A DNA stretch of 64,000 nt from a virus, in the IMG/VR virus record IMGVR_UViG_3300009159_000053, positions 1-64,000 of that record. One strand, 5' to 3'. Of this stretch, positions 3,134-15,950 are shown in pieces. Each line of letters opens with the position of its first letter. Within the stretch, counting starts at the first letter, position 1. The notes beneath the pieces are model-generated. The model had not been told where the DNA came from, made no database searches, and saw only the letters and a list, made by a program, of their open reading frames with translations. Made by a program: the position numbers and the translations under genes.

Positions 3134-3418
3134 ATGGAAAACAAAAAAATGATCATTAATGATCTAACTTATGATGAAGTTGCGTTATTACTTACATCAT
3201 TAAAAACCATGATAATAAAGATGAAGGAACTTGAAGCCCCTGAGTTCTTTATTGAAATGGCAATACCTTTGTTTGATCAGGTCGAGATTATTCTTGATGA
3301 AAAAGTGGCTGAACAAAAAGCGTTCATTGAATTGGTTAGCGACCAACTTGATGATGTTTTACTCGCTTCATCAATTATTGAAAAAGACCCTGATGTGGTA
3401 ATACCTGAATACAAATAA
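3134..3418 (+). CDS. hypothetical acidic protein
   Basis: ORF abutting the previous one; AGGA RBS. Confidence 0.7.
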   Translation: MENKKMIINDLTYDEVALLLTSLKTMIIKMKELEAPEFFIEMAIPLFDQVEIILDEKVAEQKAFIELVSDQLDDVLLASSIIEKDPDVVIPEYK

Positions 3419-3605: not shown

Positions 3606-3657
3606 TTCAATTCCCCAGTAATACAAACCAAACCAACAAATAGAAACGGAAAACAAA

Positions 3658-4521
3658 ATGACTACAACAAATAACAAATCCTTCTTTGTTCCTTCGCTGG
3701 AACAAACTGGGCATTACATTGAACGATCTTTCGGTGGTGGTATTACCGAAACTCAGATGTATGACTATTCACTTGAAAACAAAATGAATGTGTTAATTGA
3801 AGGTGATGCTGGAACTGGTAAAACAACTTCCGCTATGGCTTACGCATCAAAACGCAAAATGAACTTCTTTGCCGTTCCTTCTAATAACGCACTTGATTTC
3901 ACACAATTAACTGGCGGTTTATTTCCTGATAGCAACGGCGAGTTAAAGTGGATTGACGGCGCAATTACAAAGATCGTTCGTGAAGGTGGCGTGTTATTAA
4001 TTAACGAATTAAATAACGCACCAAAAAATCTTTCACAATATCTAATGAGTTTATTAGATGATCGCCGATCAATTACATTGATGAGCCACGACAACGAAGT
4101 TATCCATGCTCACCCTGATTTATTAGTGGTTGCTGATATGAACCCTAATTATCGTGGAACTCAATTACTTAATGAAGCGTGGAAAGATCGCTTCGCAATT
4201 AAGTTAACTTACAACTACGACACAAAGATTGAAAAACAAATCCTTAGTTCAAGTTCATTACTGGAACTTGCTAATGGTATGCGTTCAACGCTTCGTGTTA
4301 GTGATGTTTCTAATTCATCAACCATATTTGAAACTCCAGTATCAACTCGTATCTTAAAAACATTCGAGAAACTTGCTAAGGGTCTTTCTTATGAGTTTGC
4401 TAGTGAAGTATTTGTTAATAACTTTGCTGATGATGAGAAGCCAGCAGTTCGTATGTTGCTAGAAGGTAGCGAATACAACATCAAATCCGATCTCGGATTA
4501 CTTGAAACAGTTAACGCTTAG
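3658..4521 (+). CDS. MoxR/CbbQ-NirQ-NorQ/CobS-like AAA+ ATPase
   Basis: Walker A GDAGTGKT, Walker B variant LLINE, MNPNYRGT, LNEAWKDRF, STR sensor. Confidence 0.9.
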   Translation: MTTTNNKSFFVPSLEQTGHYIERSFGGGITETQMYDYSLENKMNVLIEGDAGTGKTTSAMAYASKRKMNFFAVPSNNALDFTQLTGGLFPDSNGELKWIDGAITKIVREGGVLLINELNNAPKNLSQYLMSLLDDRRSITLMSHDNEVIHAHPDLLVVADMNPNYRGTQLLNEAWKDRFAIKLTYNYDTKIEKQILSSSSLLELANGMRSTLRVSDVSNSSTIFETPVSTRILKTFEKLAKGLSYEFASEVFVNNFADDEKPAVRMLLEGSEYNIKSDLGLLETVNA

Positions 4522-4535
4522 TTAGGAATAAATAA

Positions 4536-6416
4536 ATGGATTATCCATTCTTAGATTTAGATACGGCTTTAGCCCAATCTGATCTAAAAAATAAGCAGAA
4601 GCAAGAAGCGGAAATTAAACGCCAAAGAGTTGAACGATTTGCTCAATTCTTTGGCAGAGTTAATTCCGCATTAACACTTCGTAAGGTTGAAGTTAAAGTT
4701 GAACATGCGGATATAAACGCACCTGCTTGGTCAGGTGCTAGTCATGTTTGTTTTAACTCTCGATTACTTGGCAACTTAAATACAGCAAAAGAAATTGCTG
4801 GATTGCGTGGTCTTGATTTACACGAAGTTAGCCACATTCTTTATACACCAAGAGAAGGTTCTGAAATCTTTGAATGGTGTAGAGATAATGATTATTTATT
4901 TGCTTACAATGCGTTAGACGATCAACGAATTGAAACTTTATTTACAACTCGTTATCCGTCAACGATTGATTGGTTCACATCAACAATTCTTATTCACTTT
5001 GTTGATGACCCAAAAGCATTTGAAACTTCGTATGGCTTATTGCGTGGTCGGCAATATCTACCAACTGAATTGTTGGCACGATCACGCAACGCATATAAGT
5101 TCCAAGATCAATTAGATGAAATCTGCGAAATTGTTGACCAGTATCGTGTATTAATTTTTCCTGATGATACTGAATTAGCAAAAGATTTAATCAAACGATT
5201 TGATGCGTTAATGCCAAAACAAGAAGTTTCCCAAGACGGATTAGCGGATTGGGAAAAAGATTTACTTGGTAATGGTGGCAAGAAAGTTATGATCTCAATT
5301 AAATCTCCATTTGGTCATGGTGATAGACCGCATGAAGGTATAGAGAGTTCATCAACATCTCGCCCAGTTCCACCAATTCAACAAAAGCGTGATCGTGATA
5401 GGGCTAAAACAAAACCTATTAAAGATGATGCTAAATTGGCAGAACAATTAAAATCAGAACCAGTAATTGAAATTGATTTAACAGATCAAAATAAAAATAC
5501 TGGTAATGGTAAAACTGCTGGTAATCAAACTCCTGATGATCAATCTGCTTTATCAGATATGTTAAATAACATATTAGATAATCAACAGATTGCTAACGAG
5601 ATCAACGACATCATTAGACAAATTGGTGGCTTACCTTCTCTTGCTACTAATAATTCTAAAGAGCCACAAAAATCTCGGTATCATAATCAAACTCCTGATG
5701 CTAAAACTTTCCAAGCATCTCTATCTTTTAGTAGAGAGTTAGAAAGATTAAAAGCAACCTTTGACCCTGCTTGGAATAAATATCAATCACAGGGTCGCTT
5801 ACAGGCGCATAGATATATGCGTGGTGATGATTTAGATACGATCTTTGATCAATGGTCAGAAGGTCAAGATGATGCCACAGAGATCGAGTGCGTAATCCTT
5901 TTAGACAATTCAGGTTCAATGAGTGGCAGTAAAGAAACTTCTGCTTATCGGGCTATGTATGCGATTAAAAGAGCATTAGATCGCATTAACGCAAACACCA
6001 CAGTAATTACATTCAATACGCATACAAACATTTTGTATCGTGCTGATGAAAAAGCAACTGGTGTAATTCGTAATGCTGGCTCTCAGGGTGGAACTAATCC
6101 AACAGAAGCAATTACTTACGCAACTAAAATACTTGCTGAAACTGAAAAGCCAGTTCGTATTTTCTTTGCCATTACTGACGGAGAGTGGGAACATTATTCC
6201 GTTAGAGAAAATGATGAAGCAATTAAGAAACTAGGTAATGCTGGTGTATTAACTGCTTTTGCTTATATTGCTGATCAAGATGAATTAGTAAAACTTGATC
6301 AGGAAAAATCACACTATTGCGAAATTGGTGCGATTGTAAATAATCCCCTTAACTTAATTAGCATGGCTAAATCAATCGTGAAGTATGCGATTAGTCGGCG
6401 ATTAGTTAACGCATAA
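4536..6416 (+). CDS. VWA-domain protein with N-terminal HExxH motif (CobT-like MoxR partner)
   Basis: LHEVSH, NALDDQRIE; MIDAS DNSGSM, GGTNP, ITDG. Confidence 0.88.
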   Translation: MDYPFLDLDTALAQSDLKNKQKQEAEIKRQRVERFAQFFGRVNSALTLRKVEVKVEHADINAPAWSGASHVCFNSRLLGNLNTAKEIAGLRGLDLHEVSHILYTPREGSEIFEWCRDNDYLFAYNALDDQRIETLFTTRYPSTIDWFTSTILIHFVDDPKAFETSYGLLRGRQYLPTELLARSRNAYKFQDQLDEICEIVDQYRVLIFPDDTELAKDLIKRFDALMPKQEVSQDGLADWEKDLLGNGGKKVMISIKSPFGHGDRPHEGIESSSTSRPVPPIQQKRDRDRAKTKPIKDDAKLAEQLKSEPVIEIDLTDQNKNTGNGKTAGNQTPDDQSALSDMLNNILDNQQIANEINDIIRQIGGLPSLATNNSKEPQKSRYHNQTPDAKTFQASLSFSRELERLKATFDPAWNKYQSQGRLQAHRYMRGDDLDTIFDQWSEGQDDATEIECVILLDNSGSMSGSKETSAYRAMYAIKRALDRINANTTVITFNTHTNILYRADEKATGVIRNAGSQGGTNPTEAITYATKILAETEKPVRIFFAITDGEWEHYSVRENDEAIKKLGNAGVLTAFAYIADQDELVKLDQEKSHYCEIGAIVNNPLNLISMAKSIVKYAISRRLVNA

Positions 6417-8422: not shown

Positions 8423-8581
8423 ATGAGATCAAAAACTTATTATCGAGTTCGAACTGCGGTTCGTATTCTTTTTTGGAGTGCGTTAGCAGTTGGGATTTAT
8501 TACTTAGCAACACATATTAACTGGGTCGGTGATCACTATTGCTTTGGCACTATTGATCAATGTTATTTAGGTGGTAAGTAA
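8423..8581 (+). CDS. small membrane protein (52 aa)
   Basis: Hand-translated MRSKTYYRVR...ILFWSALAVGIYYL; AAGGAG RBS. Confidence 0.6.
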   Translation: MRSKTYYRVRTAVRILFWSALAVGIYYLATHINWVGDHYCFGTIDQCYLGGK

Positions 8582-8758
8582 ATGGGTTATGTAGAAATTG
8601 TTAGACAAGTTCAAGATCACGAATTAGATTTATGTGATCAATGCGGTCAGCAAGGCGTTCGCAATAATGGCAAAACAATTACTGATAACTATTCTCAGGA
8701 CATTCTTTGGTTTTGCTATAACTGCGTAGAAACACAAAAGAGATCACTCTCTCGCTAA
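8582..8758 (+). CDS. small Zn-finger protein (58 aa)
   Basis: Hand-translated MGYVEIV...CDQC...WFCYNC. Confidence 0.6.
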   Translation: MGYVEIVRQVQDHELDLCDQCGQQGVRNNGKTITDNYSQDILWFCYNCVETQKRSLSR

Positions 8759-8767
8759 CTTAAAATT

Positions 8768-8907
8768 GTTGGGTAGGCGTTAACACAAGACCTTACTGGG
8801 GTTTTGTTTTCATTCCCCACTCCTTTCACTTGTGAAGGGCGGTCAAGACTTTTATTTCCTTAATTTGCTTTGGATAATAAAACGAGCCGTATCTGCGCCT
8901 ACTCAAC
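8768..8907 (+). ncRNA. candidate multi-branch structured RNA
   Basis: 12-bp closing stem GTTGGGTAGGCG/CGCCTACTCAAC; inner GACC/GGTC, TGGGG/CCCCA, CCTTTCA-CTTG-TGAAGGG, TTTTATT/AATAAAA. Confidence 0.6.
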
Positions 8908-8930
8908 TCCTAATAGAATTGGAGTAAGTA

Positions 8931-9089
8931 ATGTTTAATGAAAATGAAAAGAAAAAGATAGTTCACCAAAGAATTGCGTATCAAAAATCTTTATCCGAAG
9001 TTGCTCGTATGTTTGGAACTTCAAGAATACAGATTAGAAAGATAGAAACGGAATATCTAAATCAATTAAGGGAGAATAAAAATGGCTGA
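8931..9089 (+). CDS. small HTH protein (sigma region 4-like)
   Basis: Hand-translated ...KSLSEVARMFGTSRIQIRKIE; GGAG RBS. Confidence 0.6.
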   Translation: MFNENEKKKIVHQRIAYQKSLSEVARMFGTSRIQIRKIETEYLNQLRENKNG

Positions 9090-9282
9090 TGATTTACTTG
9101 ATGAAAGTTTATTTGATGAAGTGTTTAGCACCGAGCCTGAATGTAATTGTGAGTGCGGTTGTAAAGTTCCAGTATTAGGTCAATGCGTTGATTGCGGTGA
9201 TGATACTGGGCATCAAAATAACAATGGATTACCTAAATACGATTACTTGAACGAACTATTTACTACAAAGGAGAGCCAATGA
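9082..9282 (+). CDS. small Cys-rich acidic protein
   Basis: CNCECGC...CVDC. Confidence 0.65.
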   Translation: MADDLLDESLFDEVFSTEPECNCECGCKVPVLGQCVDCGDDTGHQNNNGLPKYDYLNELFTTKESQ

Positions 9283-9590
9283 ACCAAGAACAAATGGATT
9301 TAATTAAATCTATTAACTTTGCTAATGAGTTTATTAAAATTGTTCGTGGGTTTAAGTTAGATCAAGAACGGCAAGATAGTTTGCCACAAGAAGTAAAAGA
9401 GTATTTAGCCAACGAACACCTAAACAAATTAATTACAGATCAGGGATTAGAACCTGAAATGTTAGTTTGGGGCTTACTACACATGATTGAAATACTCTTA
9501 AATGTTGCTGAATTAGAACCTAATGATTTAGTTGAAATTATGGAGAAGTTTGTTGAACAAATATCTAATAGTAATGGAGATCAAACATGA
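9279..9590 (+). CDS. hypothetical protein
   Basis: ATGA-coupled ORF; AAGGAG RBS. Confidence 0.7.
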   Translation: MNQEQMDLIKSINFANEFIKIVRGFKLDQERQDSLPQEVKEYLANEHLNKLITDQGLEPEMLVWGLLHMIEILLNVAELEPNDLVEIMEKFVEQISNSNGDQT

Positions 9591-11485: not shown

Positions 11486-12823
11486 ATGGCGTATGTGATT
11501 AAACGCAACGGCAGATTTACAGGCTATTACAGGCTTCAAAATCGCCGTTTATCGGCTGGCACATGGGCTAATGAAACCGAAGCCATGTATCACGCCATAC
11601 AAGCCGAGAAGCAGGGCTTAAAAGCCCCCTCAAAGGCTAATTTAAGGGTGGTTGATTTTGTAGATCAATGGCTGGCGGTGGCTGATCTAATGCCGATCAC
11701 AAAAAAGGGCTATAAGTCGGTCTTAACTAGATTTGTAATTCCAGTTATAGGAGATCGAGAACTAACTTCCCTGAAGCCTTCAGACCTAGTTAAGTTAATT
11801 GATGATCTCAAACTATCGGGAGTTAGACCTGCCACCTTAAATCAGGTGAAGGCTTCTCTTGGCTCAATGTTTTCAAAGTTGGTTAATGCTGGTCAATTAG
11901 AGAGCAATCCGACACATGGAATTAAGATCAAGGTCAATCATGCCAATATATCTAATCTCCTAGACCCTGATGAGTTTAAGGAGATCATTAAGCATTTACC
12001 GACACAAGGAACTAAATTATTCGCCCAATTCTTAGTAGCAAGTGGGTGTCGGTTTGGTGAAGCAACGGAAGTAAGAGCAAAAGACATTAATTTCAAAACT
12101 GGCGAAATCTTTATTCAAAGGCGAGTTAGTGATCTAGGAACAAATTACAACAATGGAACTAGGTTCATGGTGATAGATGCCACCAAGTCAGGGCATAAGA
12201 GAAGCCTAGTAATAGGAAAAGCCCTATTACAGCAGTTAAATGCGTATGTCCTAGCAAAAGGCATAGCAAAAGATGATCTGATGTTTCCAAGAACAATACT
12301 CTTAACGGAAGGTAAACTTAAAGGTTCACGAAGCGCAAAGCCCTCTCGACCATTCGAGAAAGGCGGAAAACAGTTCCAGCATGGAACTCTTTACTCCTAT
12401 ACACATGGGGGTTGTAGATGCGAAGGGTGTAGGCAAGCAGTAGCAAACTACCGCAAAGCCAAAGCCCAAGCAGAAGCACTAGCAGAAGCAGAGCAGGTAA
12501 GAAGCCGAAGCCGTAAGGCAAAGCAGAAGCATCAGCAGAAGCACAAGCAAGGGAGTTTCATCAACAATATGAGCCACATGCCTCGTGATGTATGGAGAAC
12601 AACTTGGAACAAAGCAATAGCCAAGTCCGCAATCGGCTGGTCGCCTAGAACTCATGATTTACGACATGCAAACGCTACGCAGTTGTTAAAGAACGGCATA
12701 GATGTCCATGAAGTAAAAGAGCGATTAGGACACCAATCGATCAAGACGACAGAGCGGTATTTACACCGCCTTCGTTCACACCAGTCAAAGGCATCTGAAA
12801 GTGCCAACGACTATTTGGAGTGA
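11486..12823 (+). CDS. int: tyrosine recombinase/integrase with an internal Zn-finger insertion
   Basis: GCRFGE (R), TKS (K), HDLRH, LGH, TTERY (Y); N-terminal arm- and core-binding domains. Confidence 0.93.
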   Translation: MAYVIKRNGRFTGYYRLQNRRLSAGTWANETEAMYHAIQAEKQGLKAPSKANLRVVDFVDQWLAVADLMPITKKGYKSVLTRFVIPVIGDRELTSLKPSDLVKLIDDLKLSGVRPATLNQVKASLGSMFSKLVNAGQLESNPTHGIKIKVNHANISNLLDPDEFKEIIKHLPTQGTKLFAQFLVASGCRFGEATEVRAKDINFKTGEIFIQRRVSDLGTNYNNGTRFMVIDATKSGHKRSLVIGKALLQQLNAYVLAKGIAKDDLMFPRTILLTEGKLKGSRSAKPSRPFEKGGKQFQHGTLYSYTHGGCRCEGCRQAVANYRKAKAQAEALAEAEQVRSRSRKAKQKHQQKHKQGSFINNMSHMPRDVWRTTWNKAIAKSAIGWSPRTHDLRHANATQLLKNGIDVHEVKERLGHQSIKTTERYLHRLRSHQSKASESANDYLE

Positions 12824-13425
12824 TGATGAAAACAAACGCAAGAATAAGAGCCGAGCAGATGCCAAAGGCAATAGCCAAAGCATCAGCAAAAGCCCAAGCA
12901 AGACTAAAGGCTTTAATACTTGGTGGGTCAATTTCGACCTTAGCCGTAGCATTTGGAGTAGCAACTACATCAGATGCCATAGCACCAACAAGAGCCGAAG
13001 CACTAATAGTTAGCGAAACAACAAACGAAGCAACCTTAAAGAAGTATGAAAATACTCATAAGTTAACCGATCTTGAATTGGTTGAGTTGCTTCATGCCGT
13101 AGGCTTTACAGGCACAGACCTGAAAGAAGCATGGGCAGTTGCTAAGAAAGAAAGTAATGGGCGACCCCTCGCTCACAATCCTAATACAAACACAGGTGAT
13201 AACTCGTGGGGCATGTTTCAAATAAACATGATCGGAGAGTTAGGCAAAGATCGTAGAGAAAAATTTGGTTTAGAAAATAATGCCGAATTGCTCAACCCTG
13301 TGGTTAATGCAAAGATCGCTTACTACATGAGTAGAGGCGGTAAAGATTGGAGTTCTTGGCATGGACTTACTCCAAAGACTAAGCAGTTAATGGAACAGTT
13401 CCCAGCAAAGAACGCAAAGCAATAG
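12820..13425 (+). CDS. membrane-anchored or secreted lysozyme-like transglycosylase
   Basis: Hydrophobic N-terminal segment; KKESNG, SWGMFQINM, LLNPVVNAKIAY, DWSSW. Confidence 0.85.
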   Translation: MMMKTNARIRAEQMPKAIAKASAKAQARLKALILGGSISTLAVAFGVATTSDAIAPTRAEALIVSETTNEATLKKYENTHKLTDLELVELLHAVGFTGTDLKEAWAVAKKESNGRPLAHNPNTNTGDNSWGMFQINMIGELGKDRREKFGLENNAELLNPVVNAKIAYYMSRGGKDWSSWHGLTPKTKQLMEQFPAKNAKQ

Positions 13426-13482
13426 CAGAAGCCATAGCAGAAGCATAAGCAAGCAAAGCAATAGGAGAAGCAATAGGAGAAG
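13414..13482 (+). repeat. AGCA-rich repeat tract (CAAAGCAATAG[C/G]AGAAG units)
   Basis: GCAAAGCAATAGCAGAAG at 13414-13431 is identical to 13898-13915; variants at 13454 and 13467. Confidence 0.85.
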
Positions 13483-13563: not shown

Positions 13564-13890
13564 ATGGGAGAACACTCTTTCGTAGATCGTTATATAGAAT
13601 TAGATAAGCAATACATACAGCATAAGCAAGAACAATATAAACATTACAAAGAACCTAATCTGCCTTACACCGAAAAATTGTTTTGGGATAAATTAATTCA
13701 TTTAGGTTGGAGAAAAGATTACACAACAACAGAGTGTTTAGTATTAGTTTGCTCTGTTTGTGAAGGAGCCATAACAAAGGTAGTTCTTAAAAATAATGTA
13801 AATATTAGACCTTTATTAAATATTGAAGATAAAGTAGAAATTCACAAGACAGCATATTGCAAAGCAACAGCAAAGCAGAGCAAAGCATAA
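13564..13890 (+). CDS. hypothetical protein with CxxC...HxxxxC
   Basis: Last ORF of the plus-strand block; GGGG RBS. Confidence 0.65.
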   Translation: MGEHSFVDRYIELDKQYIQHKQEQYKHYKEPNLPYTEKLFWDKLIHLGWRKDYTTTECLVLVCSVCEGAITKVVLKNNVNIRPLLNIEDKVEIHKTAYCKATAKQSKA

Positions 13891-13916
13891 GCAAAAGGCA
13901 AAGCAATAGCAGAAGG

Positions 13917-15950
13917 CTATTGATTATCTTTAATTAGCCTAACTTCGCAGGCATCGGTTGTACAGTAAGCCTCACCAATAGCATCAGCAGCCATACCAGC
14001 ATAAACTCCTGACAAATCAATTGGAAATAATTTCATAGTTCCTTCTGATTCATATTCTTCAGCAGTGATTTGAGTGTAAGGCATTTGAGGATAGGTAGCA
14101 TTACCAGAAGGTAAGAAGGATACGGTTTTAAGTTGACCATCATACATATGCAAAGCCGTACCAATAGCCGAGGCTTCGGTCTCAGGATTAAAACTAATAG
14201 TCACACTTACAGAGTTGTCTGACCAATACCTTTGTGCAGTTGCAGCAAGAGCCATCTTTTCGTAAATGCTTACGTCTTTTTCAGAACGTCTAGCATTAGA
14301 TTTGATTGGGAAAAATACAACAGAAGTAGTATTTGGAGATTCACTTGCTGGTTCTACTCTGTAGTTAGCCATCTTAAACAAAGGCAACATTGGATCAGAG
14401 TTTGCAAACCGAATAGCACGATTAAAGTACTCTCCGCCTACAGTCCAGTGAACGCCAGGTGATTCACCTGCCAAGATGCTAACTGTTCCACTTGGCTTCA
14501 CGGTAGTCATCTTGATTGACTCACGAATACCAAGCCATTCAGAATAAGTGGTGTCGTAGGTCTTGATTACTTTGTATCCTTCATCCATCCACTGACGGAG
14601 TATTGGTAATCCTTTTCTATCTGCAAAGTTAGCCACTCCTGAAACAGAAGTTCCAATGCGCCGATTTCTTTGCATTATGGCGTTTGTTTCTTCCCAGTGC
14701 GTAGGGATAAGGGTTACCGTCTTAGCGTATAGATAAGCAAACTTTAGAGTTCTTTTAAAATCTTCTATATCGTCGTGGCGATTTAGATAGGTCTCTACTA
14801 AAGTACAGCATTCAAAAGATTCAAGAGATTGTTCTGCACAGGGGTTATATCCTGCAATGCGCCAATCTTTATTATTAATTGGATCAATGAGACGACCATA
14901 TTGTTTCGAGATATCCATCCAAACAACTCCTGGCTCTCCGTTACGAGCAATGCCGTCAATAATGTTATCTAAATTATCTCCAACATTTACCGATACAGAG
15001 TTGTTGGACATCCAAGCCCATCCTGGTTTTTCTGGATTGTAAGAGTTTCTTTCTGGAAATTTTTCTGCGTTCTTTAAATTTAAGAAATCTTCATCATCAA
15101 TTCGACCAATAAGTAACTCAGCAGACCGCCGAACATTACCAGATACAACACAAACCCCAATAAGGTTCCCAATATCAGCAATATCAATGCGGGTAAGTTT
15201 CTCACCAGCACGTTCTTTGAAGATTCCATCGATGTAATTATGTAACTTAATGAGCGGTTCTGGACCTGCTGCTGTTCCACCAAATGTCTTGATGGGTTCG
15301 CCTGCCTTGCGAATTTCTGCATAATCAAACCTAGGACGTTTTGAGTCTGATCGTAGGTAAGAGTTAATAAGCGTGGCCGTTGACTCGACCCAGCCTTCTC
15401 TGGTATCTGGAATGACATATATTTCCCCCTCCTGCGGTTTGTAAATCGTAAAGTCTTTGTCGGCACCCTTATCGTCGAACCCAACTCCAACACCAAGCAT
15501 ACTAGCCTCCATTAAAAACGCAAAAGGCTTTGCTGGATCGGTCTTAGTCATTGAGCCAGTCGATACAAACGCACAGTTTTGTAAGGCTGCTGAGTTACGT
15601 TTTTCATTTACAAGCGGAGTACCCATAACCCAAAGACCCCTACCTGGTGGTGTCCACTTTAAGTTCCACAAACGGTCGAAAGCCTCTTTGGCTGAGGCGG
15701 CTGCTTTAGCATCTGACCAAGGTAAGCGGTTTGTTTTAGCGTGGTCTTTTTGTAAAGAATACATACCGTTGATTACTCTCTCACAAACGTCAACCCAAGT
15801 TTCTTTAGTACCATCTGCTTTAAGTCGTGAATAGGTCCTAAGAAAAGTTATTTCACCAACGGAATTACCAGCGGCATCTTGATATCCGAAGGGAGCCTTT
15901 AAACTCTTATATGGTGTAACAAACTCTTCGGCTAACTTAAAAGAAAACAT
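13917..15950 (-). CDS. nrdJ: class II (adenosylcobalamin-dependent, monomeric RTPR-type) ribonucleotide reductase
   Basis: RTYSR, PPGRGLW, NC, GNVRRSA, NPCAEQ, TTVKPSGT, C-terminal CxxDxC. Confidence 0.95.
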   Translation of the reverse strand: MFSFKLAEEFVTPYKSLKAPFGYQDAAGNSVGEITFLRTYSRLKADGTKETWVDVCERVINGMYSLQKDHAKTNRLPWSDAKAAASAKEAFDRLWNLKWTPPGRGLWVMGTPLVNEKRNSAALQNCAFVSTGSMTKTDPAKPFAFLMEASMLGVGVGFDDKGADKDFTIYKPQEGEIYVIPDTREGWVESTATLINSYLRSDSKRPRFDYAEIRKAGEPIKTFGGTAAGPEPLIKLHNYIDGIFKERAGEKLTRIDIADIGNLIGVCVVSGNVRRSAELLIGRIDDEDFLNLKNAEKFPERNSYNPEKPGWAWMSNNSVSVNVGDNLDNIIDGIARNGEPGVVWMDISKQYGRLIDPINNKDWRIAGYNPCAEQSLESFECCTLVETYLNRHDDIEDFKRTLKFAYLYAKTVTLIPTHWEETNAIMQRNRRIGTSVSGVANFADRKGLPILRQWMDEGYKVIKTYDTTYSEWLGIRESIKMTTVKPSGTVSILAGESPGVHWTVGGEYFNRAIRFANSDPMLPLFKMANYRVEPASESPNTTSVVFFPIKSNARRSEKDVSIYEKMALAATAQRYWSDNSVSVTISFNPETEASAIGTALHMYDGQLKTVSFLPSGNATYPQMPYTQITAEEYESEGTMKLFPIDLSGVYAGMAADAIGEAYCTTDACEVRLIKDNQ

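Follow-up and report, generated by a model that had tools for sequence, protein, structure and literature searches.

What occupies the 172-nt gap (positions 8759-8930) between two small plus-strand genes of an uncultured virus? The gap lies in the 64 kb analysed here (the window), the first part of an 86.9-kb virus record that encodes a tail sheath, baseplate J, a DNA polymerase A, a class II ribonucleotide reductase, an SNF2 helicase, an integrase and a MoxR/VWA pair. Among cultured phages, its DNA polymerase comes closest to those of Streptomyces phages, at 37% identity, and freshwater samples are the main source of related sequences. A sequence-only reading had placed a structured RNA at 8768-8907 and proposed that it is an antisense sRNA, one loop of which shuts off the translation of four genes in the same block. 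The structure is confirmed by a conserved fold and by a covariance-model match that extends over 8766-8907: this stretch of the plus strand is a genuine structured RNA, and it belongs to a group of structured phage RNAs that recurs in many uncultured phages, mostly from freshwater, and matches no Rfam family. The antisense proposal divides into a part that stands, namely a structured, strand-specific RNA with exposed loops resembling antisense sequences of start regions, and a part that falls, namely the four targets named for the loop 8802-8814.

The RNA is flanked upstream by a gene for a zinc-ribbon-like protein of 58 aa (8582-8758, plus strand), the stop codon of which is separated by 8 nt from the RNA as delimited by the model and by 10 nt from its first stem, and downstream by a gene for a 52-aa sigma-70 region 4/HTH protein (8931-9089, plus strand; Pfam PF04545, E = 1.8e-6). 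Between the RNA and the downstream gene, the predicted fold contains a small plus-strand hairpin, ACUCC...GGAGU (8906-8925), which overlaps the first stem by 2 nt and is preserved in a divergent relative (L015) by means of a G-U pair. Judging from the modelled fold, this hairpin could mask the ribosome-binding site of gene 8931 and may have a functional role. Elsewhere in the window, a tRNA-Gly(GCC) gene is located at about 1606-1681 on the minus strand, within the G+C-richer first 2 kb (Rfam match 1609-1681), and a tyrosine integrase gene at 11486-12823 on the plus strand; together they hint at a possibly temperate lifestyle, with a tRNA serving as attachment site. The genes for the MoxR-type AAA ATPase and the VWA protein adjoin each other at 3658-6416 and are CobS/CobT-like by PHROGs.

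The RNA, present as a single copy in the 86.9-kb genome according to a covariance-model search, folds into a three-way junction with a kink-turn-like arm (8766-8907, plus strand), an arrangement that departs from a simple row of hairpins and is matched by our covariance models R1 and R2 with 158 and 79 bits, respectively. The minimum free energy of the plus strand is -47.6 kcal/mol (z = -2.9). The closing stem P1 consists of 13 bp between 8768-8780 and 8895-8907 and is followed by the junction strand J1/2 (8781-8783), the UAA of a conserved GCGUYAA that is kept throughout the family alignments A5 and A6. P2 is formed by CACAAG (8784-8789) and CUUGUG (8829-8834) and carries an apical hairpin (8797-8819) with the composition U-GGGG, loop, CCCC-A. 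This is the hairpin from which the antisense proposal had started, and its loop TTTTGTTTTCATT (8802-8814), enclosed by TGGGG (8797-8801) and CCCCA (8815-8819), is present as described; the GGGG/CCCC stem is retained among relatives, L018 having a U-A pair at one position. A single-stranded, anti-Shine-Dalgarno-like segment, ACUCCUUUCA (8819-8828), follows on the 3' side of P2. In P3, the 5' strand AGGGCGGU (8836-8843) pairs with 8886-8894, leaving A8891 bulged, and leads into the kink-turn-like strand (8844-8849), in which the bulge CAA (8844-8846), G8847, A8848 and C8849 stand opposite C8883, G8884 and A8885. The arm ends in the variable hairpin P3b (8850-8882), whose loop (8860-8871) contains TTTGCTTT; P3b differs widely in length and sequence among family members, and L015 does not keep its loop.

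This fold is substantiated by covariation. RNAalifold, applied to eight relatives, yielded 43 pairs, seven of them with compensatory changes. Among 18 distinct variants of the cluster around the window, 97.2% of the cells are paired, and five pairs are doubly changed as opposed to 1.1 in shuffled alignments, none of 500 of which scored as high. For 32 distinct sequences of the family, 92.4% of the cells are paired, compared with 69.0% in shuffles and 31-43% in slid controls, and compensatory changes occur at 23 of the 30 pairs, figures that are to be read in the light of an alignment that was fitted to the covariance model and thus favours the structure. In the raw alignment rows, a covarying trio of P3 pairs is evident nonetheless (GGC/GUAUC, UUU/AAUAC, ACU/AGAUC, UCC/GGUAC). 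Compensatory changes are seen in 11 of the 13 pairs of P1 in the family alignment, and all six pairs of P2 covary; in L015, two of the A-U pairs have become G-C by double changes. The P3 stem AGGGCGGU/GCCGUAUCU, the canonical stem on the 5' side of the bulge, has 99.2% of its cells paired; its three inner pairs covary (G-C, U-A, G-U, A-U, C-G), five are invariant, and the P3b pairs that adjoin the kink covary as well. The U-G pair of P1 that adjoins the junction is found in 32 of 32 sequences and would be A-C if the other strand were transcribed, which identifies the plus strand as the RNA.

The strongest conservation is found in the junction and in the strands of the kink-turn-like motif, less so in the loops. 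The invariant core comprises GCGUYAA, YAAG, GGUCAWGAY and CKAGCC..CUGCG, and GGUCAWGAY and CKAGCC are kept in every member. Together, these elements form a stem, a 3-nt bulge CAW, and a GA, which stand opposite (G/U)A and the other side of the stem. A stem followed by a 3-nt bulge and tandem G-A/A-G pairs is the signature of kink-turns, as in Kt-7 and box C/D RNAs. The pair of P3 adjoining the bulge is an invariant U-G; about half of the family has a U at the 2n position, with A-U in place of A-G as the second tandem pair; and a non-canonical stem is present beyond the G-A pairs, as the pairs past the C-C or U-C position covary (U-A, G-C, C-G). From this sequence pattern, the internal motif of P3 is probably a kink-turn.

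Other assignments of these elements were considered. The P2 loop might have paired with the bulged strand of the kink-turn-like motif (UCAU with AUGA), but members with a CAAGAC bulge still have UCAUU loops, and the idea was rejected. A pairing between the CU-rich loop and the AAGRG strand of P3 would fit some lineages, whereas the subgroup with UCAUU loops cannot form it. A relation of GAGCCGUAU to domain V of group II introns, which it resembles, was likewise dismissed: its partner strand is found on the 5' and not on the 3' side, and the sequence varies to UAGCCAAUAC.

How far does this family extend? Relatives of the window itself were collected via the VWA protein, which gave 16 loci; the gap is present in 15 of them, with 78-100% identity. 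Members further afield were sought by scanning for the invariant core, with both exact and degenerate patterns, and then by searching with R1 and R2. R1 matched eight places among 73 sources; another 60 viral loci contained 28 that R2 recognised at E ≤ 3e-6, a further 20 contained 11, and 20 of 100 metagenome loci are members by R2 (100 of the 113 pattern loci, L157-L169 being outside the 100). Around ribonucleotide reductase genes, the RNA was found in three (L259, L276, L282) of the 77 loci searched with R2, from a set of 80. These three, together with L053, L056 and L098, lie well beyond the cluster of the window. One locus, L051, with an E-value of 0.14 for R2, was left out of the member count. 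In bacterial and archaeal genomes, none of the 56 loci from the pattern scan is a member by R2, so that the pattern matches there are chance occurrences in G+C-rich coding DNA. Neither the region itself nor three family members gave a meaningful BLAST match among 50,697 phage records, and R2 likewise had no hit in the genomes of three Streptomyces phages, those with the closest DNA polymerase. A contig of 1332 nt from a freshwater metatranscriptome spans 8446-9400; the RNA-library data, from four runs, are contigs that report presence only, without ends, strand or level, and cannot prove transcription.

The position of the RNA relative to coding regions is recurrent, while the genes themselves are not. 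In most members, the RNA begins about 0-22 nt past the stop codon of a small ORF on the same strand; across lineages, the distance to the stop ranges from about -45 to +22 nt, the stop codon lying inside the RNA in a GC-rich subgroup. The upstream genes are unrelated among lineages and include zinc ribbons, acidic peptides, a membrane peptide and others, with small zinc-ribbon genes adjoining the RNA in the window cluster, in L056, in L342/L345 and in the GC-rich subgroup. At least nine lineages have a strong terminator directly behind the RNA, facing the convergent reductase gene; in these, the RNA is the 3' end of its transcript and cannot regulate a downstream gene. In L323 and L329, the upstream stop codon is the UAA of the YAAG junction, so that the coding region overlaps P1 and P2. 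In L053 and L098, the RNA is located at the 3' end of the reductase gene beside a two-way terminator, and in the window in the middle of a gene block; the class II ribonucleotide reductase of the window (13917-15950, minus strand) is about 80% identical to those of L053 and L098.

Does the RNA belong to a class that has already been described? Rfam 15 has no model that reaches its gathering score over 8766-8907, the only match in the window above gathering being the tRNA, and none matches in 14 other member loci. At low threshold, the best match within 8600-9100 is a box C/D snoRNA (E = 0.49; 17.8 bits against a gathering score of 65), which agrees with the likeness to a kink-turn. In the GC-rich members, the bulged strand reads AUGAUGG, near to a C box, as in box C/D small RNAs; in contrast to these, the phage RNA has no D box or guide region and thus falls outside the class. 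Nor was a gene of the L7Ae family (PF01248) found in the phage genome.

Junction RNAs that contain a kink-turn are represented by the aptamers of the SAM-I, lysine and c-di-GMP-II riboswitches and by stem I of the T-box. The phage RNA shares with them a multi-helix junction with one arm, here kink-turn-like, beside invariant junction nucleotides, but differs from them in matching none of their Rfam models and in lacking a conserved downstream gene or expression platform. A different precedent is set by regulatory small RNAs such as S. aureus RNAIII and RsaE/RoxS, whose C/U-rich loops mask ribosome-binding sites. Here, the likeness consists in several exposed pyrimidine-rich loops complementary to Shine-Dalgarno sequences; unlike these RNAs, the present one is phage-encoded, is built on a conserved core of a three-way junction with a kink-turn-like motif, and usually follows straight after a stop codon. 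At the level of abstracts, the published literature yielded no description of such an RNA. A large set of 8,495 anonymous candidate structured RNAs (DNAVirus_N) has been mined from IMG/VR (PMC10690425), and these are likewise covarying intergenic motifs of uncultured phages from the same data source; the main text of that study names no such motif, the terms 'kink', 'k-turn' and 'three-way' occurring 0 times each, although the supplementary models may include it. What we describe is a new RNA family of a general kind already known.

Which messages, if any, do the loops address? For the loop TTTTGTTTTCATT, complements had been listed at the start codon of gene 2951 (2950-2961), at the transglycosylase start (12826-12836), just after the ATG of gene 3134 (3137-3146) and between the ribosome-binding site and the ATG of the MoxR gene (3649-3658), and for a second loop, TTTGCTTT (8864-8871), in the repeat CAAAGCAA. 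All of these are found, the latter six times on the plus strand, and the four sites rank as the top four of 143 start regions, which were called crudely from the longest frames and a ribosome-binding-site score; all four lie within the plus-strand block. Moreover, an ATGAAA start is found in five of the 143 genes only, which counts in favour of the proposed targeting. Against these points stand comparisons with composition-preserving shuffles of the 13-mer, 1000 for the genome and 400 for the start regions. Complementary sites of at least 10 nt number five in the 86.9-kb genome, as opposed to 2.95 in 1000 shuffles (P = 0.22), those of at least 11 nt three, as opposed to 0.76 (P = 0.065), and a duplex energy of -9.5 kcal/mol or below is reached in four of the 143 start regions, as opposed to 1.6, with 12.5% of the 400 shuffled loops reaching four. 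An enrichment of the target words, which had been put forward as a check, did not emerge either: GAAAACAAA occurs six times against 2.1 expected, one copy being the loop itself, with 2 of 100 shuffles reaching six, and the repeat CAAAGCAA ten times against 5.1 expected, with 5 of 100 shuffles reaching ten. The complementarity to four genes is real, but it is not above chance for a U-rich 13-mer.

The relatives lead to the same view. While the 3' part of the loop, UCAUU (8810-8814), is kept, its U-rich half UUUUGUUUU is replaced or deleted in close relatives, where the loop takes forms such as UUUUGUUUUCAUU, UUUCCGUUUUCAUU, UUCUUUCAUU, UUCUAAUUUUCAUU and UCGUUUUCAU; among the relatives from the VWA-protein search, no other part of the RNA is so poorly conserved. 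Changes in loop and targets are mostly independent. In L005, a short loop coexists with all four targets that are covered there, unchanged; L035, L046 and L087 combine a short CUUUCAU loop with an unchanged transglycosylase start; and, in the reverse case, L033 and L022 keep the loop of the window, with the transglycosylase start altered to ATGAACAACAAG. Three cases do resemble covariation, in that a CUUUCAU loop goes with a start that reads ATGAAAG: in L021 and in L043 this is the start of the transglycosylase gene, in L010 that of the homologue of gene 2951. They do not outweigh the independent changes elsewhere. Lineages outside the window cluster, such as L053, L056 and L098, lack the inner hairpin altogether. 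As regards a discrete transcript, the window has no promoter-like site adjoining the RNA and no terminator after it; in other lineages, a terminator directly follows. That the loop 8802-8814 serves as a trans-acting antisense seed for the repression of genes 2951, 3134, MoxR and transglycosylase is a reading to which we attach very little probability; the matches to the four named targets involve the U-rich half of the loop, which is not conserved, and are due to chance. More generally, matches between an A/U-rich loop and start codons within one genome are no evidence of targeting.

What does recur in the loops is a pair of short motifs. The interior of P2 is 73% pyrimidine, compared with 54% overall, and contains UCAU, towards the 3' side of the loop, in 18 and CCUUUC in 13 of the 32 distinct family sequences; either motif is present in P2 or P3b in 26 of the 32, neither in six. 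Their 5'-3' order is reversed in L098 and L371, and the GC-rich subgroup combines UCAUU in P2 with an extra 3' hairpin whose loop is AACCUUUCU. The window carries both, UCAUU at 8810-8814 and the single-stranded CUCCUUUC at 8821-8828; as UCAUU recurs in the family, the conserved part of the loop discussed above is its last five letters. Within the window cluster, the segment ACUCCUUUCA is mostly invariant, with CUCCUU fixed in every row; in L015, the UUUC stretch is shorter by two letters, and a few rows differ in the final letter. CUCCUUUC and CCUUUCU correspond to a section of the tail that ends bacterial 16S rRNA on its 3' side. Summed over 21 representatives, the likeness to this tail amounts to 123, against 102 ± 4 in shuffles, none of 1000 of which reached it, a test that overstates independence, as the lineages share motifs by descent. 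For ACUCCUUUCA, the mean duplex energy is -6.07 kcal/mol on the 143 start regions and -4.31 kcal/mol on intragenic sites (p = 3e-14), but composition-matched shuffles of the segment reach -5.27 ± 0.44 kcal/mol, so that the observed value is only about 1.8 standard deviations away. Its best partner, with a match of 9 bp, is the ribosome-binding site GAAAGGAGU of gene 8423. All of these complementarities are short (4-9 nt) and biased in their purine/pyrimidine composition.

Taken together, we tentatively propose that the RNA is a kink-turn scaffold which displays anti-start-codon and anti-Shine-Dalgarno loops, and put the probability of this reading at roughly 40%. The rigid core of junction and kink-turn would act as the scaffold from which the variable, pyrimidine-rich loops of P2 and of the end of P3 are held out. 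The UCAUU loop would be antisense to AAUGA, and the loops with CUCCUUUC or CCUUUCU would be complementary to Shine-Dalgarno sequences; by pairing with the Shine-Dalgarno and start-codon regions of messages, they could limit the access of ribosomes. Candidate targets would be start regions carrying GAAAGGAG or AAUGA, and the messages could be those of the phage itself, such as genes 8423 or 8931, or those of the host. For gene 8931, it counts against this that L010, L018, L015 and L046 have lost the pairing between the loop and its first codons. A more elaborate variant, which we regard as doubtful, would have the copy of the anti-Shine-Dalgarno sequence (CUCCUUUC or CCUUUCU) and an initiator-anticodon-like CAU loop jointly imitate the contacts that the 30S subunit makes with a start region, and then either capture chosen start regions or draw off a host factor that acts on the 16S tail. 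If true, it would amount to a modular, structure-scaffolded way in which phages steer translation. Phage regulatory RNAs are poorly charted, and a compact, covarying RNA with a fixed core and swappable pyrimidine-rich loops is absent from Rfam; if the loops of the proposed scaffold do mask ribosome-binding sites, the family would represent a structured, modular class of phage translation regulators and provide a scaffold for RNA engineering.

Other readings of the same core have to be weighed against this one. The distribution of conservation, strongest in the junction and kink-turn strands rather than in the loops, speaks for a scaffold or decoy, in which a phage or host protein would bind the kink-turn and junction, or the 16S-tail-like loops would divert a factor that normally acts at the end of 16S rRNA, without any pairing to mRNA as the function. 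Kink-turns are common protein-binding sites, and the small zinc-ribbon genes that adjoin the RNA in several groups fit with such a role, but the phage genome has no L7Ae-family gene and the neighbouring genes are non-homologous across lineages, and we hold this reading to be possible though improbable. The close and recurrent spacing to an upstream stop codon, or the overlap with it in the GC-rich subgroup, would fit a cis-acting element located where a coding region ends, with a part in the stability or processing of the mRNA or coupling the translation of the upstream and downstream genes; the terminators that directly follow the RNA and, in the window, the overlap of P1 with the hairpin that could mask the ribosome-binding site of gene 8931 are in line with this. 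The flanking genes and the exact stop distance, on the other hand, differ by lineage, and since a terminator hairpin alone protects a 3' end, the invariant junction and kink-turn would be left unexplained. This reading, too, appears unlikely to us, though it deserves consideration.

An aptamer-like three-way junction with a kink-turn-like arm and invariant junction nucleotides, in the window next to a hairpin that could mask a ribosome-binding site, also evokes a riboswitch whose junction would bind a small molecule and control the downstream gene. This is very improbable, given that the downstream genes differ or are absent, that many members are followed by nothing but a terminator facing a convergent gene, and that no Rfam riboswitch matches. 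Less probable still is an element that does not act as RNA on the plus strand. Read on the minus strand, the conserved loops (8819-8836) do give AAAGGAG, 6 nt, ATGAAA, the ribosome-binding site and start codon of a textbook mini-gene, but the frame comprises six codons in the window, differs in length and sequence in the relatives, and has no ATG at this place in other lineages. A plain terminator is hardly more plausible, for the hairpin flagged by a terminator scan (8785-8807) has G-C at three of its ten pairs and is not kept in relatives; and for any non-RNA element, a DNA site included, the invariant G-U pairs are compatible with the plus strand alone. A processive antiterminator resembling put RNA was rejected on the grounds that many members directly precede a terminator facing a convergent gene.

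Some minor observations concern the surroundings of the RNA and its repeats. Around the gene 13564-13890, at the end of the plus-strand block of the window, AGCAA-rich tracts at 13400-13470 and 13855-13915 contain CAAAGCAA four times. In L056, just past the copy of the RNA, a second long hairpin (5970-6033, minus strand) with a P1-like closing stem and the inner loop AACCUUUCAUGG resembles a partial tandem copy of the RNA without the kink-turn arm. In L323, L329, L324, L344, L365 and L337, a hairpin with the loop AACCUUUCU is located about 100 nt past the RNA and is followed by a highly conserved non-coding spacer and then by a zinc-ribbon gene of about 35 aa (MNSND..C.YGAWHYG..C..C.KGRK).
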